Of a stretch of DNA of 64,000 nt, positions 38,206-58,719 are shown in pieces. The position numbers were made by a program, and so were the translations under genes. Position 1 is the stretch's first letter; each line of letters starts with the position of its first letter. This DNA is from Candidatus Wolfebacteria bacterium GW2011_GWB1_47_1. Its GTDB lineage: Bacteria; Patescibacteriota; Minisyncoccia; UBA6257; UBA9933. The stretch covers positions 157,352-221,351 of the forward strand of contig CP011209.1 of the NCBI GenBank assembly GCA_001029635.1, in the 5' to 3' direction. The notes under the pieces are model-generated. The model was not told where the DNA came from. It saw only the letters and a list, made by a program, of their open reading frames with translations, and did not search any database.

Positions 38206-38212
38206 TAAAACT

Positions 38213-39500: not shown

Positions 39501-39624
39501 GTATTCCTCGCAGTGCGACGAGATATACATTTCTGTGGGCCTCCGCAGCGCGGTAGCGCGAGGACGAGTAAAATATTCAGCAGAATATTTTACGTGCGCA
39601 CAGAAACGTCATACCGAGAAGCTG

Positions 39625-42600: not shown

Positions 42601-45600
42601 GATCGTGATCCTGATCATCGCGGTGTTGGAGTAGACGCCATCAATATCTGCCTTGGCATCCCAATAGGCGCCGAGTACTGTAGCGGTCGCGCCGATCGGC
42701 TGTAAGCCGTTGGTGCCGCTTTCGAGCACGAGAGATGGAGAGGATGTCGCAATATCGGTCCAGGTGGAGCCATTGTCGGTTGAATACGCGAAGGACGGCT
42801 CGATGCGTCCCGGGATAGTTACGCCTTCCGCGGTATCCTCATCAAGAATGGTGTAGTTGACATGAACCTGTCCGTAGCGGGCATCGGTGGAGTCCGATAT
42901 GACACTTGCTGACTGCGATGAAAACGCCGGTCGGATATTGTACCCCGCACTGTTTGTATCGGTTGCTTCGTCTATATTGCCAAAGACATCGCGGATACGC
43001 ACGGTGATTGTTTCGCTGCGCGAGTCCACATGCCAAGGGAAGGTTGTTGTCGCAAGGGTAACACCATCGGATGCGAAGGCATCCCCCCAACTGTCTTCGG
43101 TTGCGACTCCTCCAACATAACCGTACCAGGTGGTACCGCCATTGCGGGAGAACTGCGCCTGAATCTGCTCATTGATCGGATGACCCGATAGTGAGACGAG
43201 GCGTAAGGTGACGTCTTTGGAGTCGGTGACTACAATTTCACTGGAATCGTTGATCAGTAAGGAACCGCCTGATAAGGTCGGTGGGGTGATGTCGAGAATA
43301 AACGAAGTCGATGTCGCGATACCGAGGTTATTGAGTTGCTCGGCATCATTTGCCGTTACGCGGATTCGAACATCGTCTTGTGAGACGTTATTAAGCTCCG
43401 TTTTTGCGTCCCAGTGTGCGGTGAACGATGCTGGGGTTGCCGATACCGTAGTGGACGCAATGTCCCCCGTTACGAGACTGGCCGGAATCCAAGTCGATTC
43501 CCCATCAAGTGAATAGGCAAAGGATGGTGTCGCTGCTATGTTATCAAGATCGGCGATCGTGTATTCGATGGTAACATCGGCATTGTTTGGATCAGGTGTC
43601 TGTGCCGCAGTAACCGTTACGATCGGTGCGCTGTTATATGACACGGTATTGGAATCAGTTGCGGGGCCATGGCCAAGAGTATCCATGATACGCACAGAGA
43701 TAGTTTCGGTCTTTTCGCCTAAGACAATATCCCACGCAACGGTTGACGTTGATGAGAACGACGTGCCATAGGCATCCTGTGCACCGATGGTGCCGTCGGC
43801 ATTTGCCGCATACCAAGTTACGCCGTCATGGGAAAGCTGTGCAATAATCAGCTCGCCTACCGGGGATCCGGTGACATCGGCCAACGTCACGGTGACGTTG
43901 GCGGAGGCTGCTTGTACGGTAGCGGAAGATCCGTTGATTACCACTGATGATTCGGTGAGTGCCGGCGCGGAAGTATCAAGATATAATGACGCATCAATCG
44001 ATGCGGAGAGGTTTCCCGCGATATCAATGTAGCGAACAGAGACGGTTTTGGTTGCGTCTCCCGCCGTAAGGGCATATGCCTTCGTGGTTGCGTATGATTC
44101 CGCGGAGGTCCAGGTGGTGCCATCTCCGGAGAATTGCATCTGAGTCACCGAATTATTGTCGGTTGCAGATAGATGCAAGACGACGTCGGTCGAGGTAGCA
44201 TAGGCGGATCCATCATTGATAACAAGGGTTCCGGTTGGTTCCTGGGTATCAAGCGTAATCGTATCGCTCGCGGTTTCGGAAATAAGGCCGGATCCATCGA
44301 TGACCTGCGCGGAAACACCTTGTATTCCATCGACACTCGGAATGGTCACGGATGATGTTGTCGCAAACGCAGACCAAGTAGACCAGGTAGCTCCTTCATC
44401 GGTTGAGGTCCGCATCTGGCTAGCCCCTGACCCTGCATCGGTTGCGGTGACCGTGAGGGTAACGGTTATGCTATTGGCAAACGCATTGTTGTCGTTAATA
44501 ACTAGTGAGATGACAGGCGCAATGGTGTCGATAAGAATATTGGCATTAGCCGATACGGACATATTATTACGTGCGTCACGGAACTGTGAGTAGACAGTCT
44601 TTAATCCCTCTCCCGTCGCAAGGGTATATGCTTTGGATGTCGCATATGATTCCCATGCAGACCAGTCGGTGTCGTTGTCGGAAAAGCGCATTGAGGCAAC
44701 TGATGATCCGGTATCAGTCGCAGAGAGATTTAATGTAACTGCCGTGGATGATGCATAGCTTGCGCCGCTATTAATGGCAATGGTTCCTGATGGAGCAATG
44801 GTATCGATCGCGAAATTTGCACTCGTTAATGATGCGGTATTACTGAATGTATCTGCATCGTCGGCGGTAAACCGAATGGCAAACGCGGAGCCACTCACGG
44901 CGCCTGCATACTGCGTCGCATCCCAGTAGGCGGAATATGAGGTATCAGTACCTGTCCCCACGGCAATCGGGGAACCAAATGCAACGCCAGCCGCATCGGT
45001 GAGTTGATTGATAGGAAGCGTTGCCCATAGCGAACCATCATACCATTCAAATGACGGTATCACCTGGTTTGTTGTGGAGTCGGTATCTCGGAGCGCGAAG
45101 TCGATCTTTATCTTGCCGAAGTTTGCGTCGGTAGAAGAAGCAAGTTGTGCGGCAGTAATAGACGCAATGGTTGGCGGTACGTTGTATGTATAGGTAGGGG
45201 TTACATCGTCAACCCTCGGCGTATATATTCCGTCAGAGGTGAGATCTACCTTGTATTGGAAATATTGATCTCCCGATCCATCCTGCATGGACGCGGGAAT
45301 TGAGGAAGAACCGCAGGTTACGGTGTCTGTAATCTTTCCACAGGCATTGGTGAAGGCTGTCCATATGCCAAGCGTATCGGTAGATGCGCCGGTACGGAGC
45401 GACACGGTAACGGAGGTATTAGCCGGAAGAGTCGTATCTTCTTTCCAGCTCAATCCGGTCATTATATTGGTCGCACTCGTGGAATTGTATAGGGAGGAAA
45501 GAAGCGAGCTTGTGGAAGCGTATCGTGCATATGTAATGGAAACGTCATCCAGTGACGGTGACTGCGAAGTATTTGCCGTCGAGAGCGTTGCCTTGTACTG

Positions 45601-48600
45601 AATGTATCGATGGCCCACCACTGCACCCAACGTGCTCAAGGAGATGCCGGTGTTAGTGGAAGCAGTGCCAAAGGATGCCGCATCAGAAAGATCAGCGGCA
45701 TTGCTGGTGCGCACCTGCATCGAAACAGTCTGTCCGCCCGAATTTGTCCACGAGAGATTGCCCCAGTTTGCCACTGCACTGCCCGCGTCCAAGACGCCGG
45801 AGGTGAAGGAGCCGGATGGATGGTAGCTGCCCGGGAAGGTAACAGACCCGGTCACGCTGTCGAGTGAGGGGGTAACTGCAGTATTTCCCCCGTTTGCCAA
45901 GGTAGCCTGATACCAGAGGTAGCGGCTATTAGATGGAGCGCAAGTCGTGTTAAGGGTGATTGACCCATTGGCGGAAACAGTCCCGGAATCGCAGGTGCCC
46001 GAAGCAAAGCTTGGCGCGCTCGCCGAGGTAGTTCCTTTAACCTTGATGCTGAAAGTTGTTCCCGAAGGATACTGTCCTGCGTACGCAAACGAGTTCCAGG
46101 TGTATGCGGCTGCGGAACCGGCGTCAAAGTAGGAAGTGTAGGTCCCGGAAGTGGCATACGATACGAGTATTCCAGGTACAAAAACAGTGTCTACAGTAGC
46201 AGTTGGCTGGATTGGAGCAGTAACACTGCCGGTCGTCGCCCCGTTGCCGACTTGGCCGGCGCCGTCATCTCCCCAGCACCATAAGCTTCCGTCGATGTAG
46301 GAGCAGGTGTGATTGTACCCCGTAGCAACCTGCGTCACGCCACTTGCAACGACCGTGGCAGGGGAATGTATGGCACCGGTAGTAGCCCCGTTGCCGATTT
46401 GGCCTAGACTGTCATCTCCCCAGCACTGCAGACTCCCGTCCGTCTTAACGGCGCAGGTGTGATTTTTCCCCGTAGCAACCTTCGTCACGCCACTTGCAAC
46501 GACCGTGGCAGGGGAAGTTATATTACCGGTGGTTCCCCCGTTACCGACTTGTCCCCAGCCATCATATCCCCAGCACTGCAGACTCCCTGATACGACGGCG
46601 CAGGTGTGATTGTCCCCCGCAGCAACCTGCGTCACACCGCTTGCGATAGCCGTGACAGGGGCAATCATGTCGTAGTTGGTCGCCGGCCCGTTGCCGACCT
46701 GGCCGGCGCCGTCACTCCCCCAACACTGCAGACTCCCGTCAGTCTTGACGGCACAGGTGTGTTTGGTCCCCGCGGCAACCTGTGCCACTCCACTTGCGAT
46801 GACCGTGACAGGGGAAGTTATGGCGCCGGTGGTCCCTCCGTTGCCAAGCTGCCCGTAGTTGTCATACCCCCAACACTGCAGACTCCCCGATACGACGGCG
46901 CAGGTGTGTTCGTACCCCGCAGCAACCTGCGTCACGCCACTTGCAATGACCTGGAACGGAGAAACGACATTGCCAGTCGTCGCCCCGTTGCCGACTTGGC
47001 CGTAGCTGTCATATCCCCAACATTGCAGACTCCCCGATACGACGGCGCAGGTGTGTGCGTACCCCGTAGCAACCTGCGTCACGCCACTCGCGATGACCTG
47101 GAACGGAGAAACGACATTGCCAGTCGTCGCCCCGTTGCCGATTTGGCCGTAGGTGTCGGATCCCCAGCACCACAGACTTCCGTCCGAGCTCTTAATGGCG
47201 CAGGTGTGAGTGCCTCCCCCGGCAACCTGGGATCCTAAAAGGGGTCCAGGCCCTTGGATGGATGGCTGGACTGGAGAAGTAATGTTACCGGTGGTTGCTC
47301 CGTTGCCGACTTGGCCTAGACTGTCATCCCCCCAACACCACAAACTCCCGTCCGTCTTGAAGGCGCAGGTGTAGTAGGTTCCCCCGGCAACCTGACTCAC
47401 TCCGGAAATTCCCGCGACTTGCACCGGCGAGAGCTGATCTTGCTCTAGGGCGTTGCCTAATTGGCCATATAGAATACTAGAATACGCATCGCTATAGCCA
47501 TTAGATCCCCAACACCACAAACTCCCGTCTGTCTTGACGGCGCAGGTGTGGTAATATCCCGTAGTTACCTGACTCACTCCGCTGGCAATGGTCTGGACTG
47601 GAGAGGTGACACTACCACTAGTTGTTCCGTTGCCGATCTGTCCGTTGCTGTTATATCCCCAGCACCACAGACTCCCGTCTGTCTTGACGGCGCAGGTGTG
47701 TAAGAAGCCCGCAGTTACCTGGCTCACTCCGCTGGCAATAATAGGGGCTGGAAGCATGACATAACCAGTGGTTGGTCCGTTACCAATCTGCCCGGCAGAG
47801 TCATTTCCCCAGCACCACAGACTCCCGTCTGTCTTGACGGCGCAGGTGTGGTAGACTCCCGTAGTTACCTGACTCACTCCGCTGGCAATGATCTGGTTCG
47901 GAGACGTGGTAAGGCCCCCGATCGATCCGATGCCGACCTGTCCATCGCTGTTATATCCCCAACACCACAAACTCCCGTCTGTCTTGACGGCGCAGGTTTG
48001 ACTCTTTCCTGCGGAAACCTGGACCACTCCGGAAATTCCTGCGACTTGCACTGGAGAGGGCTGATCTGACGGTATAGTATTGCCGAGTTGGCCAGTTAGA
48101 TCATAGCCATATCCTGACTCATAACCGTTAATTCCCCAGCACCACAGACTCCCGTCCGTCTTGACGGCGCAGGTATGACTGCTCCCCGCAGAAACCTGCG
48201 TCACTCCGCTGGCAATGATCTGGACTGGAGATGTAATAGCTCCTCCGATCACTCCGTTGCCAATCTGTCCATGATCGTTATATCCCCAGCACCACAGACT
48301 CCCGTCCGTCTTAACGGCGCAGGTGTGGTAATCCCCTACGGAAATTTGTGAAGACGTATCACGTAACGTTACGCTCGAATTAGAGCCGCTTACCCCGTTT
48401 AGGTTTGTGTCCGCATTTGCACCATATGCCCACCCTCCTTGCTGAGAGGGAGTTGCGACGGTGGATGTGTCATCGGTCGTTGTAATGCTTCCGGTCACGG
48501 ATTGCGTTGTGAGTGTAATCGAAGTTCCTGTCCCGCTTCCGGTAAGCGTGGTCGTTGCGGTGGTATACGCGCCATACGCAAACCCGCTTGCGGTTGTAGT

Positions 48601-48864
48601 TGCATCGCTTGTCTGGGTTATGGTCGTCGTCGCAAGCGGAAGGGTTAGCGCAGTCGAGGTCGCCAAGGTTGCCGAATTAAACTGTGTCCATCCCGTGCGG
48701 TTTGCCGATTCTGTTGCGATAGTGGCGGTTGCCCCGCCCGTCCACGCGTTTTGTGAAAAGCTCGCCGTAGTAGCCGCCTGCACAAAGTCTCCTTGTCCGA
48801 CTACAACGGATAGCAACGTAACCGCAACGGTTGCGACGGTAAGGGCTGATTTGAATATCTTCAT
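39625..48864 (-). CDS. Giant secreted surface protein (about 3080 aa from the MKIFKSALTV start): signal peptide, Ser/Thr-rich region, about 15 RCC1-like beta-propeller repeats, then multiple FN3/Ig-like domains
   Basis: Signal peptide MKIFKSALTVATVAVTLLSVVVGQGDFVQA. The motif HTCAVKTDGSLWCWGYNxxGQxGNG repeats about 15 times (RCC1/ATS1-type blades); FN3-like segments (TWATITWETDEDADGIVSYN, KHYLVERAADG...YTYRIAVVD). The internal track ORFs on both strands are artefacts. Confidence 0.85.
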   Translation of the reverse strand: MKIFKSALTVATVAVTLLSVVVGQGDFVQAATTASFSQNAWTGGATATIATESANRTGWTQFNSATLATSTALTLPLATTTITQTSDATTTASGFAYGAYTTATTTLTGSGTGTSITLTTQSVTGSITTTDDTSTVATPSQQGGWAYGANADTNLNGVSGSNSSVTLRDTSSQISVGDYHTCAVKTDGSLWCWGYNDHGQIGNGVIGGAITSPVQIIASGVTQVSAGSSHTCAVKTDGSLWCWGINGYESGYGYDLTGQLGNTIPSDQPSPVQVAGISGVVQVSAGKSQTCAVKTDGSLWCWGYNSDGQVGIGSIGGLTTSPNQIIASGVSQVTTGVYHTCAVKTDGSLWCWGNDSAGQIGNGPTTGYVMLPAPIIASGVSQVTAGFLHTCAVKTDGSLWCWGYNSNGQIGNGTTSGSVTSPVQTIASGVSQVTTGYYHTCAVKTDGSLWCWGSNGYSDAYSSILYGQLGNALEQDQLSPVQVAGISGVSQVAGGTYYTCAFKTDGSLWCWGDDSLGQVGNGATTGNITSPVQPSIQGPGPLLGSQVAGGGTHTCAIKSSDGSLWCWGSDTYGQIGNGATTGNVVSPFQVIASGVTQVATGYAHTCAVVSGSLQCWGYDSYGQVGNGATTGNVVSPFQVIASGVTQVAAGYEHTCAVVSGSLQCWGYDNYGQLGNGGTTGAITSPVTVIASGVAQVAAGTKHTCAVKTDGSLQCWGSDGAGQVGNGPATNYDMIAPVTAIASGVTQVAAGDNHTCAVVSGSLQCWGYDGWGQVGNGGTTGNITSPATVVASGVTKVATGKNHTCAVKTDGSLQCWGDDSLGQIGNGATTGAIHSPATVVASGVTQVATGYNHTCSYIDGSLWCWGDDGAGQVGNGATTGSVTAPIQPTATVDTVFVPGILVSYATSGTYTSYFDAGSAAAYTWNSFAYAGQYPSGTTFSIKVKGTTSASAPSFASGTCDSGTVSANGSITLNTTCAPSNSRYLWYQATLANGGNTAVTPSLDSVTGSVTFPGSYHPSGSFTSGVLDAGSAVANWGNLSWTNSGGQTVSMQVRTSNAADLSDAASFGTASTNTGISLSTLGAVVGHRYIQYKATLSTANTSQSPSLDDVSITYARYASTSSLLSSLYNSTSATNIMTGLSWKEDTTLPANTSVTVSLRTGASTDTLGIWTAFTNACGKITDTVTCGSSSIPASMQDGSGDQYFQYKVDLTSDGIYTPRVDDVTPTYTYNVPPTIASITAAQLASSTDANFGKIKIDFALRDTDSTTNQVIPSFEWYDGSLWATLPINQLTDAAGVAFGSPIAVGTGTDTSYSAYWDATQYAGAVSGSAFAIRFTADDADTFSNTASLTSANFAIDTIAPSGTIAINSGASYASSTAVTLNLSATDTGSSVASMRFSDNDTDWSAWESYATSKAYTLATGEGLKTVYSQFRDARNNMSVSANANILIDTIAPVISLVINDNNAFANSITVTLTVTATDAGSGASQMRTSTDEGATWSTWSAFATTSSVTIPSVDGIQGVSAQVIDGSGLISETASDTITLDTQEPTGTLVINDGSAYATSTDVVLHLSATDNNSVTQMQFSGDGTTWTSAESYATTKAYALTAGDATKTVSVRYIDIAGNLSASIDASLYLDTSAPALTESSVVINGSSATVQAASANVTVTLADVTGSPVGELIIAQLSHDGVTWYAANADGTIGAQDAYGTSFSSTSTVAWDIVLGEKTETISVRIMDTLGHGPATDSNTVSYNSAPIVTVTAAQTPDPNNADVTIEYTIADLDNIAATPSFAYSLDGESTWIPASLVTGDIASTTVSATPASFTAHWDAKTELNNVSQDDVRIRVTANDAEQLNNLGIATSTSFILDITPPTLSGGSLLINDSSEIVVTDSKDVTLRLVSLSGHPINEQIQAQFSRNGGTTWYGYVGGVATEDSWGDAFASDGVTLATTTFPWHVDSRSETITVRIRDVFGNIDEATDTNSAGYNIRPAFSSQSASVISDSTDARYGQVHVNYTILDEDTAEGVTIPGRIEPSFAYSTDNGSTWTDIATSSPSLVLESGTNGLQPIGATATVLGAYWDAKADIDGVYSNTAMIRITINDQEAIFSTATATTSAFVIDTTDPTITTARFDARTNALTFAFSDEGAFQYRFSEFANFTASSSSATNATDGQWIDANATAASSLTWTVATSSYPTIYVQVRDGSGNISQQSIVAPSAPSRIDFTDISKADLQLYKEFISWPVHGNVANSTFKHYLVERAADGITFDLLATQTTLLQAYYLDNEVASSTEYTYRIAVVDTDDDTSAYSPVLTDVPDGRGSSDSNAPLFTVAPSAPVVHSTWATITWETDEDADGIVSYNKVGDAAYGMTATEQGAGQTHSVTLSALVPDSDYVFKVASKDSNLNEGIDDNSGAGYTFHTTAGPYITQITGEGITDANALVSWHTNKTADTLVRYAVSQSFNGYKEVWGTSLPVGDASTTEDFIHTVPVTGLAAGTTYYYSVQSTDVQGNTTMDDNGGTYRTFRTTNDTFPPAISQVSTPIRTPNSVSVFWKTSEPATSQVRYGASSSTMNTYTPADATLSVYHSVNIGLDAGTALTPNTTYAFSVESRDGSGNAAVSTSTTFATTQEGEVRVVTIGGGASQSTPPEVKDTTAPTISNITIATTTAFGAIIEFDASEPSLGFLHYGKDAFTDTISHRDWTTHHKFTITGLKMGTEYKFEAEAIDKSANRMISESQTFKTKYLTQASPGLRTVEDVKQYEEEVEQTIESILPGVLPPFVEEPRITAITENTADISWKTNIKSYAVILYAKESEFDATRPNPYVGEISRTESKETDHQLTLVGLEPNTKYHFMVRSFSLPQVVGSSQDTTFTTKASRISARVINIKNTSFNVVWSTEDTASTIVEYKNVRTGEIQRKIENTLVKEHEILIDKLVPATAYEVTVFGYNEKGNLIEGGAPLTVSTVRDITAPKISNFKVDGALVPGRNDRVQTVITWVTDELSNSVIYYQEGAGQVKDGFANKEEQLDTYTNNHAIILSSLKPGTIYQMKIESTDSAGNKTTFGPRTVITPQKGESIFDVIFKNFEDTFKFLRGAGQ

Positions 48865-49075
48865 TCTATTGTAGCGTTTAGAGAATTGCATTGTATGTAT
48901 AAGTGTGTGTTTGTTTGAATAGGTTCTTCGTGTGGTATCACTTCGTAGTGGGGCTGGCTGTATATAAATCCCTTGGGGTGACTCCGGGGGTCGACTTCCA
49001 CCGGGGTCCCGATATCGTTTTTTAAAATGCAAAAATTCACTTTTTTGAAAAGTGTTCCGCAGTTCACGTATACGC

Positions 49076-49146
49076 AATGACGCACGCAAGAGTGTCATGT
49101 GTGTTCGTAGAGAATTCGTTTTTCATTTCCACGCAAATAGAAATGA
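49076..49146. promoter_or_regulatory. Conserved upstream region of giant gene 1 (AATGACGCACGCAAGAGTGTCAT ... TTCCACGCAAATAGAAATGA), repeated in inverted orientation upstream of giant gene 2 (58831-58892)
   Basis: 23-bp and 20-bp blocks are identical at both loci in the same orientation relative to each gene, 200-250 bp upstream of the start codons. Confidence 0.55.
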
Positions 49147-49253
49147 TTAACCAATGTTCAGTTATATCTACCCCATGTAGATTATTATCATTATACTATA
49201 TGCAAATATTTTTGCATAGTGCATAACAATGGTTCTTCCCGTATACTAAATGG

Positions 49254-50681
49254 ATGAAACGAATTTTATTTTTTATTGTTCCGATTATCGTTCTGGTAGT
49301 CGGTGTATATTTTTTTGCGCCATCAAAAAATCATAGCAAGGTGCTCGTCATCGGCATTGATGGAGCAACCTGGGATATTGCTCAGCCGATGATTGACCGA
49401 GGGGAACTCCCCACACTTAAAATGCTCATCGATTCGGGCATCTCGGGACATCTAGCCTCAATTGATCAGCCCGTCGTACCGGCCGCCTGGGTATCTTTTG
49501 CGACCGGGCAAGAATCCGGCAGTACGGGGGTCTTTGATTTCTTAACCCCCATATCCAACTCCTATGATTTTCGCATTATTGCCCCGGGAGAGCTCAAAAC
49601 CCCTGCCCTTTGGGAGCTTATCGGCAATGCAGGGAAAAAAGTTGGCCTAATTAACTTTTTATTTTATCCTGCCCCTGTGGTTAACGGGTTTTCGATATCC
49701 GGAGAACTTACGCCTGCCGATCTCCTTAGTGAGCTTGCCGATTCCACATACCCAAAGTCTCTTAATCAAGAGCTTTCCGCCGTTGGTCCCTACCATATTG
49801 ACGCAAAAAAGTTTGAAGATCCTGAAGGTTTTCTTAAAAGCATCAATACTTCCCTTGTTGAGCGTACAAATAGTGCCGAATATCTGGTACGAACCAAAAA
49901 AGTGGATGCTTCCTTCGTTATTTTTAATGAGACGAATCGCTTGCAGCATTTTTTCTGGAAATACCAAGATCCCCGTAATTCAGCCTACATTCCGGGCAAC
50001 CCGTATGAACGCGCGATCAGCGATCACTATAAGGCGCTTGATAATGCCATAAAAAGGCTTATTGCGGCTGCCGACGAAGATACTCGAGTTCTCGTCTTCT
50101 CGAATCATGGGTTTGGAGGTCTCTATAAGATCGTTTCCATCAATACATGGCTTCAACAGCAGCATTTGATCTCGTTTTCCCCTGATTTGGGGCAAAAATA
50201 TGCAGATATCGTTAACTGGCATGAGACGCAGGCATTTTTCCCAAGTCAATTTCAAGGTATCTTTATCAATGCGACCGGTCGCTATCCACAGGGTATTGTC
50301 ACTGAGACACAATATGAGACACTTCGCTCTCATATCATCGATCGCATACTCACGCTCCGCGATCCGCAGACGAATGCACTGATCGTGACCAAGGCGGAAC
50401 GAAGAGAGGATGCCTATCCAGGAGCGAACAATGCCTCACTTCCTGATATTATTCTTACCTTCGCACCAGGCTATCATGCATCCAATGAGGTTGGTGGGGC
50501 GCTCGTCAGACCCTCTACCTATTGGTCGGGCATCCACAATCAAGATGGTATGTATATCTTGTCGCATCCTGAACAGAAACCCACCAAGCGCGATGCACAC
50601 ATCCTTGATCTTGCTCCGACGATATTGCAAATGCTCGATATTCCTATACCAAAGAATCTAACAGGAACGCCTATTATCTAG
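49254..50681 (+). CDS. Alkaline-phosphatase-superfamily protein (type I phosphodiesterase / nucleotide pyrophosphatase-like), membrane-anchored
   Basis: N-terminal TM segment; VLVIGIDGATWD metal-site motif typical of the AlkP/NPP family; HGFGG and further family hallmarks. Confidence 0.65.
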   Translation: MKRILFFIVPIIVLVVGVYFFAPSKNHSKVLVIGIDGATWDIAQPMIDRGELPTLKMLIDSGISGHLASIDQPVVPAAWVSFATGQESGSTGVFDFLTPISNSYDFRIIAPGELKTPALWELIGNAGKKVGLINFLFYPAPVVNGFSISGELTPADLLSELADSTYPKSLNQELSAVGPYHIDAKKFEDPEGFLKSINTSLVERTNSAEYLVRTKKVDASFVIFNETNRLQHFFWKYQDPRNSAYIPGNPYERAISDHYKALDNAIKRLIAAADEDTRVLVFSNHGFGGLYKIVSINTWLQQQHLISFSPDLGQKYADIVNWHETQAFFPSQFQGIFINATGRYPQGIVTETQYETLRSHIIDRILTLRDPQTNALIVTKAERREDAYPGANNASLPDIILTFAPGYHASNEVGGALVRPSTYWSGIHNQDGMYILSHPEQKPTKRDAHILDLAPTILQMLDIPIPKNLTGTPII

Positions 50682-50766
50682 AACCGATCCGGCTTTGCCC
50701 CGCCATCGCGCAGACCCCTTCTAGCGGACCCGATCATTTGACTCGTGCTCAGTATGGATACACATA

Positions 50767-50796
50767 AAAAACACTCAGCCGTATGGCTGAGTGTTT
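50767..50796. terminator. Bidirectional terminator between convergent genes
   Basis: AAAACACTCAGCCGTATGGCTGAGTGTTTT. Confidence 0.65.
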
Positions 50797-50802
50797 TTCA
50801 TG

Positions 50803-52092
50803 TCAGAGTTCTCCTGCGGTCATTGCCCAGAAGGTTCCCTTGTCGATAGTATTCTTTTTCCAGGTATCGCCTTCTTTATAATATTGCATGAGGTGCCCCT
50901 CGCTGATATTATTCAGTCCGACCGGTTTGCTATCCTTTGGCCGAATGATGGACAGTGAATTTACATATACCTCGTAGTTCGCATCCTTGTCGATATCATA
51001 GGCGAATGCGTCATATCCTCCGCTATTTTTGCCCACAAACTCAGGCAGCTTGGATAGATTATCTATCTCCGTCTTTACGAAATCGCTCCCCGTAAAGTCA
51101 TACATAAATACGTATCCATCCGGGTCGGTTGAAACGAATAGCTCTTCACGTCCGTCGTTGTCAAAATCCTTCGCGGTGATTGCCTTGTTGTTATCTTGTT
51201 TTACGTTGTCATCAATCACGCGCTTTTCCCATACGCCATCCTTTTTTGCGTATGCGACTAATATGCTGTTTGGCCATGTACCCGCCACAATTACATTGCG
51301 CCCATCGCCATAGAGGTTATGCGCAATTGATAATCTGCGATGTTGTCGTCCCTCAAGGTGTCCGGCAATTTCCCGTACCCATTTGCCGCCTTCGTAATGA
51401 TATACGCCAACCCAACTTTCCGGTTCGCCCTTATACATGTTTCCGGTACCGTGTGCGGCGATGAGCTCATTTTTCCCGTCTCCATCTACGTCAGCGATTT
51501 CTACCGTATGGATCGCGGTTTGATATGTTTTTCCACTTGGCGTTATCACAGTGCGGCCATCATCCCCGTCCATTTCCCGCGTGATATTTTGCATTACCAC
51601 ATCTTTTTTCCACTGCTGGTCGCCTTCATTCCATGTGTATACGATAACCATCCCCTCTCCATGTGTTGCGATGACAATCGAGTTCGTGCCATTGTTGTAC
51701 GCATCGCCTATTTCAATATCTCGGCAGAATGGCTCGCCCATCGAATCCACGACGGATGACCTGAACCCATCATTTGTTTTTTCGTAGATTTTTATCGCGC
51801 AATGATCGCTGTCATATGTCCGTTTGTTGATTGTTGCGACAACCATGGCAACACCGTTATTTTTCACGTCGCCAACTTTAATGTCAAAGATCGATTCTTC
51901 CCCCACTTCATCAATCACCTGCTTTATAAATGTGCCATCCTCGAGCTTATATGCGATAAGTTGTCCTGGAACAAGCGTTCCCCCGAATACATACTGCTCC
52001 TTTTTAGGTATGCCATATTGCTGAATAAGCACAAATGCGATAATAATAACTGCCACTGCGATACCCGTTCTGTATTTTTTTATAAATTCCAT
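50803..52092 (-). CDS. Membrane-anchored FG-GAP/VCBS-repeat beta-propeller protein
   Basis: TM anchor IAVAVIIIAFVLI; repeated D-x-D/N-x-D-G-xxE-L motifs (DVDGDGKNELIA, DFDNDGREELFV, DKDANYEVYV). The start is chosen at MEFIKKY, 5 nt after the upstream stop. Confidence 0.6.
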   Translation of the reverse strand: MEFIKKYRTGIAVAVIIIAFVLIQQYGIPKKEQYVFGGTLVPGQLIAYKLEDGTFIKQVIDEVGEESIFDIKVGDVKNNGVAMVVATINKRTYDSDHCAIKIYEKTNDGFRSSVVDSMGEPFCRDIEIGDAYNNGTNSIVIATHGEGMVIVYTWNEGDQQWKKDVVMQNITREMDGDDGRTVITPSGKTYQTAIHTVEIADVDGDGKNELIAAHGTGNMYKGEPESWVGVYHYEGGKWVREIAGHLEGRQHRRLSIAHNLYGDGRNVIVAGTWPNSILVAYAKKDGVWEKRVIDDNVKQDNNKAITAKDFDNDGREELFVSTDPDGYVFMYDFTGSDFVKTEIDNLSKLPEFVGKNSGGYDAFAYDIDKDANYEVYVNSLSIIRPKDSKPVGLNNISEGHLMQYYKEGDTWKKNTIDKGTFWAMTAGEL

Positions 52093-52096
52093 AATG

Positions 52097-52705
52097 TTAG
52101 TTACACGTAAAACTTTCCAGTTGTTTTTTTGCTCGGTCGACACCGAATGTATGTTTAGACGAAAGTATTTCTATATTAACAAGTTTTTGTGCTTCGGGAC
52201 AATATACCAATGTTAGCATTCCCTTGTAGATCGCCTGGTCTTCAGTCATCACCATATAGGAGAAATAGCGATCTGCGAATGCCAGGAAGGAGGGTGTTTC
52301 CCTCCCTTGTATTTCTACCGTTTCTTTTTGGGGTTTAAGCTGGTCTGGCACCTGTGCTACGGCTGCGATGAGGTCCGCGTAAATTCCAAGAATCTCCTCT
52401 GGTGCAAAGTGCGCATCCATTGTTTGAAAAATACCCTCCGTCCTTTTTATCGCCTCCTCCTCAGTGACGCGGTCTATTATTTTTATGCGAATGATATCCT
52501 CGTTGCTTTTCGCAGTCAGCTCGATATTTTTATTTCCGCCATAAAAGAATTCATCATACGCGCTCACGCGAAACCCGTCATCGTATATCGCGATCCCCTG
52601 TGTCCAGAGGTGCCACCGGAGTGTATACGAGCCATACCAGAGTATCCCCGATATTGCCGCGAGCAACGCGACACCTCCCGCAACTCTATAAGTATTTTTT
52701 TTCAT
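52097..52705 (-). CDS. Hypothetical membrane-anchored protein (202 aa), operon member
   Basis: N-terminal TM VAGGVALLAAISGILWY; its start overlaps the permease stop (ATGA). Confidence 0.5.
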   Translation of the reverse strand: MKKNTYRVAGGVALLAAISGILWYGSYTLRWHLWTQGIAIYDDGFRVSAYDEFFYGGNKNIELTAKSNEDIIRIKIIDRVTEEEAIKRTEGIFQTMDAHFAPEEILGIYADLIAAVAQVPDQLKPQKETVEIQGRETPSFLAFADRYFSYMVMTEDQAIYKGMLTLVYCPEAQKLVNIEILSSKHTFGVDRAKKQLESFTCN

Positions 52706-53397
52706 CGTATTATGCGCTTACTTATGAGTTCGACCCCCGCCAGTATGACCAGTGTTGGAAATATGCTGAGTAATAGTATTTCTCCGGTAGAAACGATCGA
52801 TTCCTTTCCGAAAAGCAGCATCGTTCCTTGGTACAGATAGGTTGCTGGTATCCATTTCGCGATCGCTAGTTGTGTTGCCGACCGCAAGGGGACAAGAACC
52901 CCAGAAGCCGTAAGTATTGCGAACATGCTTGACGCAAACAATAGCGTCCTCATTTCCGCGACAAACGGCACAAGTAATACGCCGACCGTACTTGCAAAGA
53001 GCGCTGTAGAAAGGAATGCGAATGAATGCGCTCCAATTGCCTCTCCCGCTCCGCTCGGCGATAGTAGCCAAATCCCTGCGAGTAGCGGCAAAAACTGCAC
53101 TGTCATTATGAGGGTGTTGGCAATAATTTCACCCCACACAACATATACCGGACGTATCGGCGCAACCGCAATCGTTTGTAATGCTCCCTTTGCCCTGTCT
53201 TCTCCCAGCGCTTGCCCCACGCCAAATATTCCGAAGATGAGCGTAAGTATGGTTATTACCGAAGCGACAAAAAATACATTGGTCGGCAATGCCATAAGCG
53301 GTATGACTGCGATTGCGGGAATGACCATGCGCAATATAAATAACCCTCGCCGCTTTGCTATCGTTTGCATTCTTTTTTTTATAATAGACTGTATCAT
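52702..53397 (-). CDS. ABC-2-type transporter permease
   Basis: Six TM segments in 231 aa; translationally coupled (4-nt overlap) to the ATPase gene. Confidence 0.7.
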   Translation of the reverse strand: MIQSIIKKRMQTIAKRRGLFILRMVIPAIAVIPLMALPTNVFFVASVITILTLIFGIFGVGQALGEDRAKGALQTIAVAPIRPVYVVWGEIIANTLIMTVQFLPLLAGIWLLSPSGAGEAIGAHSFAFLSTALFASTVGVLLVPFVAEMRTLLFASSMFAILTASGVLVPLRSATQLAIAKWIPATYLYQGTMLLFGKESIVSTGEILLLSIFPTLVILAGVELISKRIIR

Positions 53398-54308
53398 TGC
53401 AAGTGTATTCCTGTCTTTTGCAAAAAGACATCCGCTAAGGTTGCCCGATTGATCCGAATATCACAGATATCCCCCCCTGCATCCACGATGCCTCGTATGA
53501 TTTCCGCAAGTGCTCCACGCTCCGCGCTCATGCGAACGCGCCCATCTTTTACCGCTACCGATTTGACGCCATTTATTTCTCCGATTTTTTGTATGGCAAT
53601 AAAATTCTTAAGGTGGAGATCTATCTCTTGCAGATCGACAATATCCGCAAGGAGTGCAGTCACCGTTTCTTTATTGATAATAGTCCCCTGATGTACGAAT
53701 GCCACCGTATCACATATAGATTCAGCTTCCGTGATCTCGTTTGTAGTGAGCAGTATCGCAGATCCTTCGCGCGCCAGTCTCTGTAGCCGTTCTTGCACCA
53801 CATATTTCGACGCGTAATCAAGCCCCGTAAAAGGCTCATCGAGTATAAGCACCTTTGGTTTTCGCAGTATTGCCTCCGCAAGGTCGACTTTTCTCCGCAT
53901 TCCAAACGAATAATTTTTCATGGGAATGTCGAGTGCGTCGCTCAGGAATAATTCCTTTACGATTTCTTCATCAAACGCTTTCTGCTTATATAATTTATTT
54001 ACGAAGGCAATATTTTCCCTCCCCGTCAGATCCTCGAAGTAGGAACTTGTCTCGAATACAATCCCCGCTTCGTTTCCAACTGCAGCTTCTGCGATTCTTG
54101 AATCGTAACCCCCTATCGTATACCAACCCGCTGTAGGATTCTGATACCCTGCAAGCGTTCGTATGAGCGTAGACTTCCCTGATCCATTCGACCCCAAAAT
54201 CCCCATAATCTCGCCGGGTTCCACTAAAAAGGTAGCTTCTTTGATTCCTCTACCTGATGTTTTGTATACCGATGCAAGCTGCTGCACCACAATGCCGTGC
54301 TTGTTCAT
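53394..54308 (-). CDS. ABC transporter ATP-binding protein
   Basis: Walker A GSNGSGKSTLIRTL, signature region and Walker B VLILDEPFTGLD. Confidence 0.85.
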   Translation of the reverse strand: MNKHGIVVQQLASVYKTSGRGIKEATFLVEPGEIMGILGSNGSGKSTLIRTLAGYQNPTAGWYTIGGYDSRIAEAAVGNEAGIVFETSSYFEDLTGRENIAFVNKLYKQKAFDEEIVKELFLSDALDIPMKNYSFGMRRKVDLAEAILRKPKVLILDEPFTGLDYASKYVVQERLQRLAREGSAILLTTNEITEAESICDTVAFVHQGTIINKETVTALLADIVDLQEIDLHLKNFIAIQKIGEINGVKSVAVKDGRVRMSAERGALAEIIRGIVDAGGDICDIRINRATLADVFLQKTGIHLQ

Positions 54309-54357
54309 ATGACTTCTTTGCGTATAATGAAGAGTATATCATATTTTTTTATTACCC

Positions 54358-55788
54358 ATGCAGCGCACATCATTTATCGGACTTCTCGCTACTGCCGCCA
54401 TTGCCGGGGTTGGTGGTGTTTTCTACGTTACTCCCACGCTTCGATCGCAAATTGCATCCCGCTCAACGCACTCCGCGCCAACGGCAAGCATTGACACGCT
54501 TGCGTCACGGGTCGAAGAGCGTCTTATTGAAATGGGCTATTTGGAGAGTGGGGATGCCCCACCTTCTCAATCGGTTGCAGAAACCCTTGTCACGCCAAAG
54601 CCGCTCCAGTCACTTCCCCCCTCCCTTACAAAAAAACCGATCCGCCCATCCGGCGAAAAGGTTATTGTGATTGGCGCGGCAACGAACGGAGCACAGGAAA
54701 GTAAAGGGGTAATCGTTGTCGTGCACCCATCGCGTAATTTTGCGCACGAAATCATCCCATTTTCTACGCTCATCAGCCATGCAACATTTTTTGATACGGA
54801 CGGAGATGGGCATGATGAGTTGTTATCCGCAACGATGGGATCGCTCCATACGCTTACTCCCCGTCAGGATTGGAAATCAGCCATCTTTGCTACCACGCCC
54901 GAATTTCGTTTACGTAAGCTGGCAAAAGGAGATATTGATGGCGATGGTCAACGGGAGCTTGCCGTGAGCACGCATAAAAATGGACAGACGATTCTTCTCC
55001 GGCACGTGCAGGGCATATGGAAGCAGACTATTCTTGGACAGCGGATGTACGGGGAGGGCGCTACCGAAAATCACGATGTATTGATGGCCGACCTCGATCG
55101 TGATGGCAAGGATGAGGTCATCGCAACCCCGACCACGGCAAAGGTGATGGGTCAAATAGATGCATGGGGGGGGAAGTTACAAGTGTTTGACTATGAAAAT
55201 AACGCCTGGTCAAACAAAATCATCGACTCCTTTTCCGGTGGATCGTTCGCTCGACGAGTACTCTATGCCGATGCTGACAATGACGGGTCAAAGGAACTCG
55301 TAGCGCTCATCGAGGGTGATCTACGTAACAGCCGCGTTTCTCAGTATGCTTCGTGCAATAATTGTGAGGATCGCCCGCTCACGCTTGTTTCATATATATA
55401 CGAAAAAGGTTTATACACACGGAAAGTTCTTCTCACGCCGAAACAACTCGTGGTTCATAGTCGAATAGCATTCTCGCCTTCCTTCGCAATTGCCGATGTA
55501 ACCGGCTCGGGGGAAAATTCGATTATCGTAACGACCCCTACCGGAATCATAGTATTTACTGATGGAACCATGTCTTCGGTCGATACATTTGGGGATGTTT
55601 CGCTCTTTACCCTCATTACGGACATCGACGAAGATGGTGTTAATGACATTGTCGTATATTCACACCAGCAAGAGAGCCTGCTTGCCTACTCATTACGCGA
55701 TGGCATTTGGGATAAAAAGGTACTTGCACACATACCGCTTAATGACACGAAGCTATTCGTTTGGTCAATCGAATTGGGAACCATCTGA
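54358..55788 (+). CDS. Secreted FG-GAP/VCBS-repeat beta-propeller protein
   Basis: Signal peptide [20 protein letters not shown]; repeats [63 protein letters not shown]. Confidence 0.6.
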
Positions 55789-56236
55789 GCGCAGCGAAAA
55801 TACCCCAAATAAAATGACCCCCATAAAGTGGACACGAAATAAAAACATCGTGTCTATTTTTTTGTATCACCATTCATCCCCGGGAGTAAAACTATCGGCT
55901 TTGGTCGATCGTTTAAAATTATCACGCTTCAGCCCATCGATCATCTCTGAAGAGGCGGGAGTTTTCATCTCAATAGATTTTAGCTCAAGGCTAAAATGAC
56001 ACACCAAGCGCATGGTCATCCTGGACTTGTCTCGCACTGAGCTTGCCGAAGTGATCCGGAATCTCGTGTACTTGCCACAAGATCCTGAATCCGTTGACTG
56101 ACGGATCAGAATGACAGATCGCTCTGGTGCTAATTTTCGTCCGAAATACGTATTAGATATATAGGCGTTGACCGGTCGGATAAAAATGGATATAAGAAAG
56201 GTAGTACGAGTAAGAATGAAAAAGGAGGAGGCGGAC

Positions 56237-56686
56237 ATGCAAAAAGTATTGGTTGTGATGCAGGATGATGTGGCGAGTTTGCGGGACGAGCGGATCAGCT
56301 ACGAAGGAGGCATCGTACCAAAGAGGAGTGGGGCAGGAGCGCAGTGTACGCGGGAGATACTCTCGGAGATTATTGCCCTGGCGGGCATACATGTTGTTGA
56401 GGCGAAAGACGAGGCGGTTCTCTCCCGGGCAATAGATGAACAAGGGGCCGAGATTGGAGTTGCGTTAGTAGTCCAACAAGGGGCAGGCAACTACGAGAGC
56501 CTTAAGTATCTGGAAAAGATACGGAGCACCTGCGGGGAACGAATTGTCGTTATTGGCATAGCAGAGAGCGTTCAGTGCATGGAGGCAATGGTTACACTTC
56601 GGGTGGATAAGTTGCTTGGAGCTCCCTTGGGAAACATAAACCTGGACGAGTTACTTAAGGTAGTTCAGGGGTATGTAATGAAATAA
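56237..56686 (+). CDS. Hypothetical protein with a receiver-like (CheY-fold-like) pattern but no phospho-acceptor Asp
   Basis: Strong RBS AAGGAGGAGG; an alternating beta/alpha pattern (KVLVVMQDD...IGVALVV...IVVIGIA); weak call. Confidence 0.35.
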   Translation: MQKVLVVMQDDVASLRDERISYEGGIVPKRSGAGAQCTREILSEIIALAGIHVVEAKDEAVLSRAIDEQGAEIGVALVVQQGAGNYESLKYLEKIRSTCGERIVVIGIAESVQCMEAMVTLRVDKLLGAPLGNINLDELLKVVQGYVMK

Positions 56687-56687
56687 A

Positions 56688-56722
56688 AAATGGCGAGCCT
56701 CCGGGCTCGCCATTATTGTTAT
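56688..56722. terminator. Bidirectional terminator
   Basis: AAAAATGGCGAGCCTCCGGGCTCGCCATTATTG. Confidence 0.6.
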
Positions 56723-57120
56723 AAAAAAATATTACTGTAATGTACTACGTCAAAATAATTTTTGCCGAATTTATACGAGGAAGGTGAGGGAGAAGATAAA
56801 AGGATGATGGAGATAAGATCGATGCGCCAGCCCTTCGAGGGTGGAACAAGATTGGGATGTTTATTTGCGTAATAGGTAGCCATTCGGGAAAGTTTGAAGA
56901 ACTTTGAACGGGTAAGATTATCTTCGGGGGTTAGGGAGGCAGGAGAAGAAAGCGTCTTCACTTCAACCAGGACAAGAGTGCCGTCGGGATCACGCGTGAC
57001 GATATCGAGTTCTCCGAAGGAGGTTCGGACATTGGTTTCGATAATGGAATAGGAAATGTCACGGAGATAAGATGCTGCGCAAGCTTCGCCAAGTGAGCCA
57101 ACAGAAAGGTGAGTGATCAT
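56719..57120 (-). CDS. YraN/UPF0102-family endonuclease
   Basis: GEACAASYLRDISYSIIETNVRTSFGELDIVTRDPDGTLVLVEVKT matches the UPF0102 signature (GE...A..YL...GY...N.R...GEIDI...LVFVEVK). Confidence 0.7.
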   Translation of the reverse strand: MITHLSVGSLGEACAASYLRDISYSIIETNVRTSFGELDIVTRDPDGTLVLVEVKTLSSPASLTPEDNLTRSKFFKLSRMATYYANKHPNLVPPSKGWRIDLISIILLSSPSPSSYKFGKNYFDVVHYSNIFL

Positions 57121-57180
57121 AAGAGTAGTATATATAGGAAGGCGATATTTTGGAAATAAAGAGCTCGGAAGTTATTGCCA

Positions 57181-57206
57181 GGTTATCCACAAAGTTATGT
57201 GGATAA
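57181..57206. promoter_or_regulatory. Palindromic pair of DnaA-box consensus sequences TTATCCACA-AAGTTA-TGTGGATAA
   Basis: Perfect 9-mers in inverted orientation 6 bp apart, immediately upstream of the parS array. Confidence 0.6.
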
Positions 57207-57229
57207 CTATGGGGCAATTCTGCCGATAT

Positions 57230-57600
57230 TTGTTTCACGTGAAACATTTAGGAGACAAGGAGGTGGAAAAATGGTTAATATTTGTTTCACGTGAAACAAA
57301 AGAACCATAAAAAGAGGGAATTAGGTGCGGAGATTTGAGAAAGTGTTTCACGTGAAACAAAAGATATAAAAAAAAGGGGGCGAGATAGCTAAAAATGTTT
57401 CACGTGAAACAAAGTGCTCTAAGGACTGTGAAACAAAAATGTTTCACAGTGAGAAAAGGGAGATAAATTGTTTCACGTGAAACAATTTATTAAAAGATAG
57501 GGGTGGAATATGAGATAAAATGTTTCACGTGAAACAAATATCGGCAATTTGCCAAATGTGAAACAAAAGTGTGAAACAATATTAAAAACTGTCAAACAAA
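57230..57600. repeat. Tandem array of six perfect 16-bp parS consensus palindromes TGTTTCACGTGAAACA (57230, 57282, 57343, 57395, 57468, 57520), one everted variant (57428-57447), and three half-sites (57556, 57568, 57589)
   Basis: Each copy is identical to the ParB/Spo0J binding-site consensus TGTTNCACGTGAAACA; spacing is roughly 50-75 bp; located between the YraN gene and the recombinase gene. Confidence 0.75.
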
Positions 57601-57810
57601 ATATGTCAACTGGTGATAAAGCGATGAAGATGAGTTGTATCCCCTCCGGCGCCCGCTTCTTGCGGGCGGGCGCCGGAAAAATAGCAGAAAATGCGAGGAG
57701 GAAATAGAGCCTTCCACTTAGAAATTGTCATTAGTAATTAAAAATTTTAAATTACAAATTAAAAATTACCCCATATGTCCTGTCGTAAAATATTTGCTAT
57801 ACTATCTGTA

Positions 57811-58719
57811 ATGGATATTAATATCTTACTAAAGGAATATTTGGATTACCTCGAGATCGAGAAGAACAGATCAAAAAAGACGGGAGAGAATTATGGAAGG
57901 TATCTGCAGAAATTTATCGATACCGAAGGTATTAGGACTGAGGAGGATATAACGATAGGGCGAGTAAGAGACTTTCGTCTTCACTTGGCGCGTTCCTCGA
58001 ACGGGAGAGGCGATCAATATAACAAGTCAACACAAAGCTACTATATAATAGCATTGAGAAACTTCCTGAAATATTTGGCAAAAAACGATCATAAGGTTCT
58101 TTCTCCTGATAAGATAGAATTGCCGAAGGTTCCGATGCGACAGATTGAAGTAATTGAGTATGACGAGCTGGAGCGGTTATTAGGCGCAGTAAACGGGGGC
58201 GACACAAAAGCACTTCGCGACAGGGCGATATTGGAGGTACTCTTTTCAACCGGGCTACGTATCTCAGAGTTATGTAGCTTGAACCGATATATGGATTTTG
58301 ACCGTGGTGAAGTGACAGTAAGAGGGAAGGGAAATAAATTACGGGTAGTGTTCTTGGACACGAAGGCCGTGGCGGCGATCAAACAATATCTCGATAGGCG
58401 GGGTGACGCCGAGGAGGCAATGTTTGTAAGTTACACCAAGGCGGCAAGCCCGAAGGTGATTGGACGGATCATCCCACGGGCGGTGCAGCGCTTAGTTGAT
58501 CATTACTCGCGCAAGGCAGGAATAGCAAAGCACGTGCATCCACACATGCTACGTCATTCTTTTGCTACCGATCTTTTGATCAATGGAGCCGACCTGCGGT
58601 CTGTCCAAGAGATGCTCGGACACGCCAATATTGCCACAACACAGATCTACACCCATATTACAAATAAGGAACTTAAAGAGGTTCATCAGGCGTTCCATGG
58701 AAAAAGAAGAAAACAGTAA
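57811..58719 (+). CDS. Tyrosine site-specific recombinase (XerC/XerD-like)
   Basis: Catalytic R...HxxR...Y pattern: RDRAILEVLFSTGLRISEL, HPHMLRHSFATDLL, IATTQIYTHI. Confidence 0.85.
   Translation: MDINILLKEYLDYLEIEKNRSKKTGENYGRYLQKFIDTEGIRTEEDITIGRVRDFRLHLARSSNGRGDQYNKSTQSYYIIALRNFLKYLAKNDHKVLSPDKIELPKVPMRQIEVIEYDELERLLGAVNGGDTKALRDRAILEVLFSTGLRISELCSLNRYMDFDRGEVTVRGKGNKLRVVFLDTKAVAAIKQYLDRRGDAEEAMFVSYTKAASPKVIGRIIPRAVQRLVDHYSRKAGIAKHVHPHMLRHSFATDLLINGADLRSVQEMLGHANIATTQIYTHITNKELKEVHQAFHGKRRKQ

Follow-up and report, generated by a model that had tools for sequence, protein, structure and literature searches.

In Bacillus subtilis, the ParB protein Spo0J recognizes parS sites with the 16-bp palindromic consensus TGTTNCACGTGAAACA, of which the chromosome carries 10, distributed across hundreds of kilobases and with 8 in the ori domain (PMC7022226, Table 1). 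In other species the chromosomal sites are clustered: Myxococcus has 22 sites near parAB, Corynebacterium glutamicum 10 in 35 kb, Caulobacter about 7 in about 10 kb, and Pseudomonas aeruginosa the sites parS1-4. The centromere of plasmid F, sopC, consists of twelve 43-bp tandem repeats, each of which contains an inverted repeat bound by SopB. Here, we describe a locus from a 64-kb stretch of the genome of Candidatus Wolfebacteria bacterium GW2011_GWB1_47_1 (contig CP011209.1; this whole stretch is called the window below), where six perfect copies of the chromosomal parS palindrome are packed into a single gap between the endonuclease gene yraN and a gene for a Xer-type tyrosine recombinase. 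The organism lives in groundwater and belongs to the Candidate Phyla Radiation (CPR, also Patescibacteria), which comprises a large share of bacterial diversity and whose members have very small cells with genomes of about 1 Mb. A search of the literature returned no work on chromosome segregation, parS, or ParB in CPR/Patescibacteria. We consider it probable that the array is the chromosomal centromere of this Wolfebacteria-like CPR bacterium, built as a compact multi-site loading platform for a canonical (Spo0J-type) ParB, and the locus thereby offers a concrete candidate centromere for two CPR clades.

The parS array and its conservation

The array comprises six exact copies of the 16-mer TGTTTCACGTGAAACA within 306 bp (57231-57536), each identical to the B. 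subtilis consensus at 16 of 16 positions. Sites 1 to 6 are located at 57231..57246, 57283..57298, 57344..57359, 57396..57411, 57469..57484, and 57521..57536, with no strand assigned to them. Their start-to-start spacing is 52, 61, 52, 73, and 52 bp, and they form three doublets (sites 1 and 2, 3 and 4, and 5 and 6) with partners 52 bp apart in each. All site counts given here cover the 64-kb window, for which dinucleotide-preserving shuffles predict 0.01 copies of the 16-mer by chance. There is no further match in the window at up to two mismatches, and at three mismatches just two matches, at the level of chance, are found outside the array.

The half-site GTGAAACA shows the same confinement, as all 16 copies in the window lie between 57231 and 57578 (2.1 expected). 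Twelve of them are the halves of the six full sites, whereas the others form an everted pair, GTGAAACA-AAAA-TGTTTCAC, between the second and third doublet (57428..57447, no strand assigned) and two direct half-sites at 57558 and 57571. Together with a degenerate copy, GTCAAACA at 57591, the latter constitute a cluster of three direct half-sites on the plus strand (57558..57598). The whole array is bracketed by a 29-nt perfect inverted repeat, whose arms combine site 1 with its left flank GCCGATATT (57221-57249) and site 6 with its right flank AATATCGGC (57518-57546). A first-pass annotation, made from the letters of the window, had reported six copies of the textbook parS consensus in about 300 bp together with an everted variant and three half-sites, and this description holds in each of its parts, the third half-site being the degenerate one.

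When the three doublets were compared with each other, the 16-mers were 100% identical, while the other 76 positions were only 30-42% identical. The perfection of the sites amid diverged flanks argues that they are kept by selection and are not the residue of a recent duplication. Furthermore, the complete gap of 654 bp is identical in 15 independently assembled contigs (NCBI, JGI, and ENA), which rules out an assembly artefact. This identity is uninformative on selection, as the strains are near-clonal and the flanking DNA is identical too.

The array fills the divergent gap between yraN and the recombinase gene, at a distance of 33.6 kb from dnaA (22260-23627), as had been estimated in the first-pass annotation (about 34 kb from dnaA/oriC). 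Clusters of DnaA boxes precede dnaA (22035-22179) and separate it from dnaN (23611-23771), and the minimum of the cumulative GC skew is located at dnaA. The window also encodes dnaN, dnaE, thrS, rpsG, fusA, topA, dprA, ligA, and relA, and this yraN is found on contigs of up to 984 kb; the array thus has an origin-proximal position among core genes. At its yraN-proximal edge lies an inverted pair of perfect DnaA boxes (57182..57207, no strand assigned), which can be written as GTTATCCACA-N6-TGTGGATAAC, with the predicted boxes TTATCCACA-AAGTTA-TGTGGATAA at 57183-57206. The first-pass annotation had already recognized these two boxes.

Four Wolfebacteria-like lineages, namely the window, L185/L186, L307, and L308, share one architecture at this locus, and the YraN proteins of the relatives are 57-61% identical to that of the window. 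Read from xer to yraN, the common order is a GC-rich hairpin, three half-sites, the sequence TTGCCGATATT joined to the first parS, the parS sites with interspersed half-sites, the block CCCCATAG-TTATCCACA-N6-TGTGGATAA-CCTGGCAATAACTT, the hexamer TATACT, 6 nt, and finally the ATG of yraN. The window has six perfect parS sites and the other lineages have four, four, and at least two. Alignment of these arrays shows that the 16-mers are conserved, as are the junction, the clusters of half-sites, and the DnaA palindrome together with its flanks, while the spacers have diverged and whole units have been gained or lost; in L185/L186, L307, and L308 alike, the sites are conserved where the surrounding non-coding DNA is not. 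The junction of TTGCCGATATT with parS is kept in L185 and L307, and that of GCCGATATT with parS likewise persists among the relatives. The everted half-site pair recurs as the same element in the same position in L307, and a cluster equivalent to the three direct half-sites is present in L307 and L185. In L307, one site has decayed to a half-site and a GC-rich insertion has been acquired. Since the related lineages share this layout, the array is most likely the chromosome-segregation site of the group.

A second clade, represented by the Kaiserbacteria-like L076, L310, L311, and L312, carries 7-10 sites directly upstream of yraN, in this case between ogt and yraN, although its YraN is only 34% identical to that of the window. 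These sites are perfect or one-mismatch variants (...AAACG and ...TTTCAT...). The clade thus lends independent support to the selection on the sites. Two of the arrays (L310, L311) are regular higher-order tandem repeats, with three units of 182 bp and four units of 115 bp, which shows that they have grown by tandem duplication. With this clade, an array upstream of yraN is found in 8 lineages from two CPR clades. Most sites in the two repetitive arrays (L310 9318-9851 and L311 9361-9877) share one single mismatch (TGTTTCACGTGAAACG), which was spread via the 182-bp and 115-bp repeats. This suggests that an imperfect unit was recently amplified in tandem, or else that a mismatch at position 16 is tolerated.

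The spacing of the sites follows a pattern within the Wolfebacteria-like clade. The centre-to-centre distances are 52, 61, and 73 bp; 84, 62, and 82 bp; 52, 73, and 40 bp; and 83 bp, and each is short of a whole number of 10.5-bp helical turns by about 0.2 turn or less. Such phasing would place the parS sites on roughly one face of the helix, an effect that is no more than suggestive given about five independent values (roughly p = 0.01). Kaiserbacteria-like and Firmicute arrays do not have such phasing.

Two further observations concern the DNA between and beside the sites. On the plus strand, the spacers (57247-57520) consist of 74% purines and 5.7% C (A98 G57 T43 C12) and show the strongest GC skew of the window, and an equivalent strand bias is visible in L185. 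In addition, GGCAA/TTGCC motifs occur at both edges of the array (57170-57225 and 57541-57555; L185 7205-7265), in the forms GGCAAATTGCC, GGCAGAATTGCC (minus-strand reading), and GGCAATAACTT(TGCC). These motifs may be a candidate site for a second DNA-binding protein flanking the centromere.

A probable centromere and the alternative roles

The centromere reading builds on the identity of the palindrome with the Spo0J/ParB site, the selection on the sites, the origin-proximal location in the core genome, and the recurrence of the array in relatives. If the established ParABS mechanism applies, each 16-bp palindrome would bind one ParB dimer, and ParB, once bound to cytidine triphosphate (CTP), would close into a clamp and slide off into the flanking DNA. 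Six loaders within 306 bp would multiply the loading flux and build one dense partition complex about 34 kb from oriC, a distance that corresponds to roughly 3% of the genome of about 1 Mb. ParA would segregate this complex, and SMC may load from it. In vitro, additional parS copies were found to increase the rate of ParB clamp loading and to lead to stronger condensation, which proceeds against higher force (PMC8299390). As parS copy number sets the loading rate in vitro, six loaders in 306 bp would be expected to give one robust partition complex. Further ParB may be held at the extra half-sites; binding to half-parS sites is known for some ParBs (PMC7022226) and could explain the conserved half-sites of this locus. 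The DnaA-box palindrome would be a second protein-binding site, probably for DnaA, and would either couple DnaA to the centromere or regulate yraN. Over time, the array would evolve by tandem duplication and decay of units, with selection keeping the 16-mers perfect.

Neither ParA nor ParB is encoded in the window according to Pfam and a six-frame search with a ParB profile, in agreement with the first-pass annotation. The profile was built from nine diverse ParBs and was run with hmmsearch on the six frames of the window and of the CPR loci compared, where it gave no ParB-like reading frame; a profile search of a large database was dominated by Lachnospiraceae-type ParBs and listed no others. 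A cognate ParB in this organism is nevertheless plausible because a cultivated CPR bacterium possesses a canonical parA-parB pair, which is listed as essential or growth-defective in the transposon sequencing (Tn-seq) data of the supplement to PMC10633639.

Several points weigh against the centromere reading. ParB and ParA are missing not only from the window but also from about 7 kb and 5 kb past its two ends and from up to 10 kb around the related arrays. In model organisms, a single parS is enough for segregation, and the selective benefit of six sites would follow from in-vitro work only. No parS is found near the yraN loci of more distant Parcubacteria (L179-L184), which means that the linkage of yraN and parS is clade-restricted and the locus not universal. 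Finally, the Kaiserbacteria-like arrays are devoid of DnaA boxes, and the type of DnaA palindrome seen here is abundant in unrelated bacteria and metagenomes.

The last two points also bear on a possible extension of the centromere role, the coupling of replication and segregation. Here, DnaA bound to the box pair would interact with ParB loaded onto the array, either in direct contact or via ParA, so that the DnaA status would gate the release of the centromere or the centromere would titrate or regulate DnaA. The block consisting of the palindrome and its flanks CCCCATAG and CCTGGCAATAACTT is conserved in L185, L307, and L308, and thus across all four Wolfebacteria-like lineages, although its 6-nt spacer varies; the conservation of arms and flanks around a changing spacer indicates a functional site. 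Moreover, DnaA boxes also accompany parS in the Parcubacteria contig L077: three perfect ones are interspersed in its array (4440-4920), in which TGTTTCACGTGAAACA and TGTTTCGCGTGAAACA alternate with a period of about 52 bp and which is interrupted three times by TGTTTCAC-N7-GTGAAACA, directly followed by a perfect DnaA box (CTTTATCCACAGG). The same type of palindrome (AGAGTTATCCACA-N6-TGTGGATAACTCT) is also found in gut Firmicute loci (L200, L210, L235, L263, L298, and similar ones), about 1.1 kb from three perfect parS sites that are followed by parA and parB. Precedents for a link between DnaA and the centromere are available from Caulobacter, where partitioning requires DnaA, which binds to DnaA boxes within the centromere (Mera et al. 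2014, as described in PMC6399470), as well as from B. subtilis, where Soj interacts with DnaA, and from Deinococcus and Vibrio, for which direct contacts between ParB and DnaA are reported (PMC7022226, PMC6399470). On the other hand, just two boxes are present in the window, and the palindrome, at 30-50 bp upstream of the -35 hexamer predicted for yraN, could simply be a promoter-proximal operator. Among the matches listed in a metagenome scan for GTTATCCACA-N6-TGTGGATAAC, we found unrelated, mostly gut-bacterial contigs and no relatives of Wolfebacteria. Judged from the sequence features, coupling on top of the centromere role is thus possible, though rather unlikely.

A more elaborate proposal, which we regard as unlikely, is that the locus would be a conserved composite "point centromere" in part of the CPR class Paceibacteria. 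It would combine helically phased parS sites, positioned half-sites between the arms of the 29-nt inverted repeat, and, in the Wolfebacteria-like lineages, the DnaA-box palindrome, and would tie ParB loading to the DnaA status and/or to the control of yraN (encoding a ComM-partner transformation nuclease) and xer. If true, replication, segregation, and either recombination or competence would be coupled at one 650-bp site in ultra-small cells.

Alternatively, the array might serve as a transcriptional operator for the divergent promoters of yraN and xer, with ParB or another dimeric helix-turn-helix protein as repressor and segregation as a secondary role or none at all. Promoter scans place a candidate yraN promoter (TTTCCA-18-TATACT, 57156-57127, minus strand, with the -10 hexamer 6 nt from the ATG) and a candidate xer promoter (57725-57753, plus strand) within 100-250 bp of parS sites, and the fact that 8 lineages from two clades have the array immediately upstream of yraN goes beyond chance synteny. 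ParB complexes are also known to silence nearby genes in some species, whereas the binding of Spo0J in B. subtilis leaves adjacent genes unaffected (PMC7022226). However, six to ten perfect copies of a pan-bacterial centromere consensus are far beyond the need of an operator, similar arrays in Firmicutes adjoin unrelated genes (gyrA/dnaX, mnmG/rsmG, parA), and yraN itself occurs in other Parcubacteria with no parS nearby. A main role as operator is therefore improbable, but an operator effect on yraN and xer is possible as a side effect of ParB loading.

The adjoining tyrosine recombinase gene raises the question of whether the array serves the partition of a plasmid, phage, or genomic island that has integrated here and is delimited by this enzyme. 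A role in an integrated element was one of those proposed in the first-pass annotation, in which an island was placed at 49-59 kb. The neighbouring segment at 39.5-56.7 kb is indeed variable between relatives, and tandem canonical parS arrays do exist on contigs classed as viral, of which 43 carry close parS pairs and one has six sites. The close relative L307, however, lacks this segment and yet keeps yraN, the array, and xer next to tsaE, rpsI, rplM, and fusA. It is collinear with the window in the backbone order fusA-rplM-rpsI-tsaE-//-yraN-array-xer (FusA 96%, Xer 90%, and YraN 60% identical). The variable DNA thus lies beside the array, which is itself part of the backbone and not of an island. 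The recombinase is a full-length XerC/XerD/XerA-type protein, and in L185 and L307 the array is likewise adjoined by its orthologues (87-90% identical), so that its gene does not testify to mobility. Within 10 kb of the array there are no Rep, ParA, ParB, phage, or conjugation genes; instead of a partition module with its own parAB and replication or phage genes, the array is surrounded by yraN, xer, an ABC transporter, FG-GAP proteins, and RCC1-repeat giants. A blastn search of the region gave no similarity to any of 72,556 plasmid or 50,697 phage records, and the same locus is occupied in 8 lineages, including the relative that lacks the adjacent variable segment. Taken together, an element-borne centromere is largely refuted and very improbable.

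The chance is close to negligible that the array is some other repeat-based element, that is, an RNA-producing interspaced array of the tandem interspaced guide RNA (TIGR) or CRISPR type, a plasmid-type iteron, or a secondary origin, even though its repeats are interspaced, DnaA boxes adjoin it, and CPR genomes carry TIGR arrays (PMC12045711). TIGR units measure about 36 nt, contain dual 10-nt repeats (alternating edge and loop repeats), and are found next to a Nop-domain tas gene (PMC12045711), whereas this array is made of 16-bp palindromes spaced 52-73 bp apart, and neither tas nor cas genes occur in its vicinity. Likewise, no Rfam family matches the array, apart from sub-threshold microRNA-hairpin noise caused by the palindromes. 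An iteron would be made of direct repeats of constant length that are conserved as whole units, but here the 16-mers alone are conserved between units, and a second oriC was rejected since only two boxes are present, the box clusters and the global skew minimum are at dnaA, and there is no Rep gene.

Overall, the locus is assessed as a chromosomal, origin-proximal centromere that is built from the canonical motif in an unusually compact tandem arrangement and is conserved at yraN in two CPR clades. Among the three roles considered in the first-pass annotation, the chromosomal "super-centromere" is the one that the evidence supports. In practical terms, the array is an easily recognized origin-proximal marker for genomes that are hard to assemble and a ready-made fragment for ParB-based DNA labelling or heterologous chromatin immunoprecipitation sequencing (ChIP-seq).

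Flanking genes and other features of the window

Both genes flanking the array are transcribed away from it. The yraN gene (56719..57120, minus strand) encodes a UPF0102 PD-(D/E)xK endonuclease (Pfam PF02021, 2e-18; NCBIfam YraN). The TATACT hexamer resembling a -10 element is found 6 nt before the yraN ATG in both the window (57120-57132) and L185 (7270-7282), which suggests that the yraN mRNA is leaderless or near-leaderless. The recombinase gene (57775..58719, plus strand), the location of which agrees with the first-pass annotation, encodes a Pfam Phage_integrase domain and a SAM-like domain, and its product matches the XerC, XerD, and XerA models over the full length, with XerA above the cutoff. 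The gene order yraN-comM-dprA-xerC is a widespread neighbourhood in Terrabacteria. We take the adjacency of yraN and xer in the window to be a remnant of this neighbourhood, and thus ancestral synteny, with no integrase scar; consistent with ancestral synteny, yraN of other Parcubacteria is located beside comM (Mg-chelatase-like) and nusA. YraN has been described as the partner endonuclease of ComM that resolves the transformation D-loop (bioRxiv 10.1101/2024.02.06.579203).

A GC-rich hairpin with a 12-bp stem (57645..57677, no strand assigned; -18.6 kcal/mol, z = -3.5) lies between the half-site cluster and the candidate xer promoter. Hairpins of different sequence occupy the equivalent place in L307 (929-950) and L185 (6766-6786), and the hairpin may or may not be part of the centromere. 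A function as intrinsic terminator was rejected, as the hairpin lacks a following T-run on both strands and transcription of the two flanking genes leads away from it.

In the variable segment (39500-56700), the minus-strand gene at 39625-49098 encodes a secreted-looking giant protein of 3157 aa that contains RCC1/WD40-like repeats. The segment also has genes for a type I phosphodiesterase, for two proteins with FG-GAP repeats, and for an ABC transporter pair, as well as small open reading frames (ORFs) of no assigned function. A second giant RCC1-repeat gene begins after xer, and its length differs among strains (2137-2238 aa, or split). Elsewhere in the window, a minus-strand ORF of 303 aa (37819-38730) is spurious, since a tblastx comparison with L307 places rplM (about 37834-38208) and rpsI (about 38357-38767) on the plus strand of this region. 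ARAGORN furthermore made odd tRNA calls at 12251-12540, including a "tRNA-SeC" with anticodon TCA (12464-12540; Rfam tRNA 51.7 bits), an 81-nt tRNA-Ile, and a tRNA of undetermined type at 12251-12333 (Rfam 29.4 bits, at the threshold). These tRNAs may be intron-containing or otherwise unusual.

Comparison with known centromeres

How unusual the array is was assessed by scanning one genome per GTDB species for two perfect parS sites 30-60 bp apart. Such close pairs were found at at least 120 loci across many phyla, and in about half of the 120 loci listed, parB is located roughly 0.8-1 kb away in the classical parS-parA-parB layout. The maximum number of perfect sites per 400 bp among these 120 loci is two in 92, three in 17, four in 6, five in 1, six in 1, and seven in 3. 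Origin-proximal arrays were also seen in Firmicute metagenome-assembled genomes (MAGs), in the arrangements gyrA-[10 sites, 55-bp period]-dnaX-recR, mnmE-mnmG-[6 sites]-rsmG, and [7 sites]-parA-parB. Close pairs are thus common, and arrays of five or more sites are a minority but recurrent chromosomal design, one that is unusual without being unique. The statement in the first-pass annotation that chromosomal parS sites are normally dispersed singly was overstated in light of these close pairs and of the 5-10-site arrays in Firmicute MAGs. Two other loci deserve mention. In a Saccharibacteria contig (L119 118-1278), several parS or parS-like sites lie inside a 386-aa ORF and are read as repeated VSRET (GTT TCA CGT GAA ACA), so that the ORF is either spurious or a genuine membrane-protein gene in which the sites are embedded. 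L036, binned as the archaeon Nitrosopumilus sp., contains a canonical ParB gene along with four perfect parS sites of the bacterial type; it is probably a bacterial contig that was placed in the wrong bin, or else a mobile element.

Compared with the Spo0J-parS system of B. subtilis, the locus has the identical 16-bp palindrome, an origin-proximal position, and multiple sites per origin domain, and the presumed mechanism would be the same, with CTP-dependent clamp loading of ParB, segregation driven by ParA, and loading of SMC. In contrast to the dispersed sites of B. subtilis, six perfect sites lie here within 306 bp of one gap, and unlike in the Firmicute ParABS centromere there is no parAB adjacent to them. 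Like the clustered parS sites of Myxococcus, C. glutamicum, Caulobacter, and P. aeruginosa, several sites would act as one centromere near oriC. These clusters, however, extend over 10-35 kb, with sites that are kilobases apart and often located in genes, so that the present array is roughly 30-100 times denser; it also differs in its tandem doublets and, in this clade, in spacings close to whole helical turns.

Plasmid F sopC has in common with this locus that a tandem array of palindromic binding sites for a ParB-family protein forms one compact centromere. Nevertheless, sopC is plasmid-borne, located directly downstream of sopAB, and built with a fixed period of 43 bp from a plasmid-specific motif, whereas the present array is chromosomal, has spacings of 52, 61, and 73 bp with unconserved spacers, and uses the pan-bacterial chromosomal consensus. 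A further parallel is the centromere of Caulobacter crescentus, in which DnaA boxes occur beside or within the parS region and outside oriC (Mera et al. 2014, as described in PMC6399470). Here, two perfect predicted boxes lie in inverted orientation, 6 nt apart, where the array ends towards yraN, 33.6 kb from dnaA, and the locus provides a natural system to ask whether centromeric DnaA boxes, which have until now been peculiar to Caulobacter, occur more widely.

Tightly packed tandem parS arrays have so far mainly been known from plasmid centromeres and engineered substrates, and the locus indicates that natural chromosomes can use them as well. As in the engineered substrates with 7 to 39 parS copies (Balaguer et al. 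2021), for which ParB loading and condensation scale with copy number in vitro, the copies are closely spaced and in tandem, but this array is natural and evolutionarily maintained. It can therefore be used to ask whether parS copy number and helical phasing tune the loading of ParB clamps and what role the conserved half-sites play. With respect to the latter, the closest parallel is the half-parS binding of ParB in P. aeruginosa, where GTTTCAC-type half-sites accompany the full sites as well; in Pseudomonas they are scattered genome-wide, whereas here they are concentrated inside or at the edge of the array, at positions that are conserved among the relatives.

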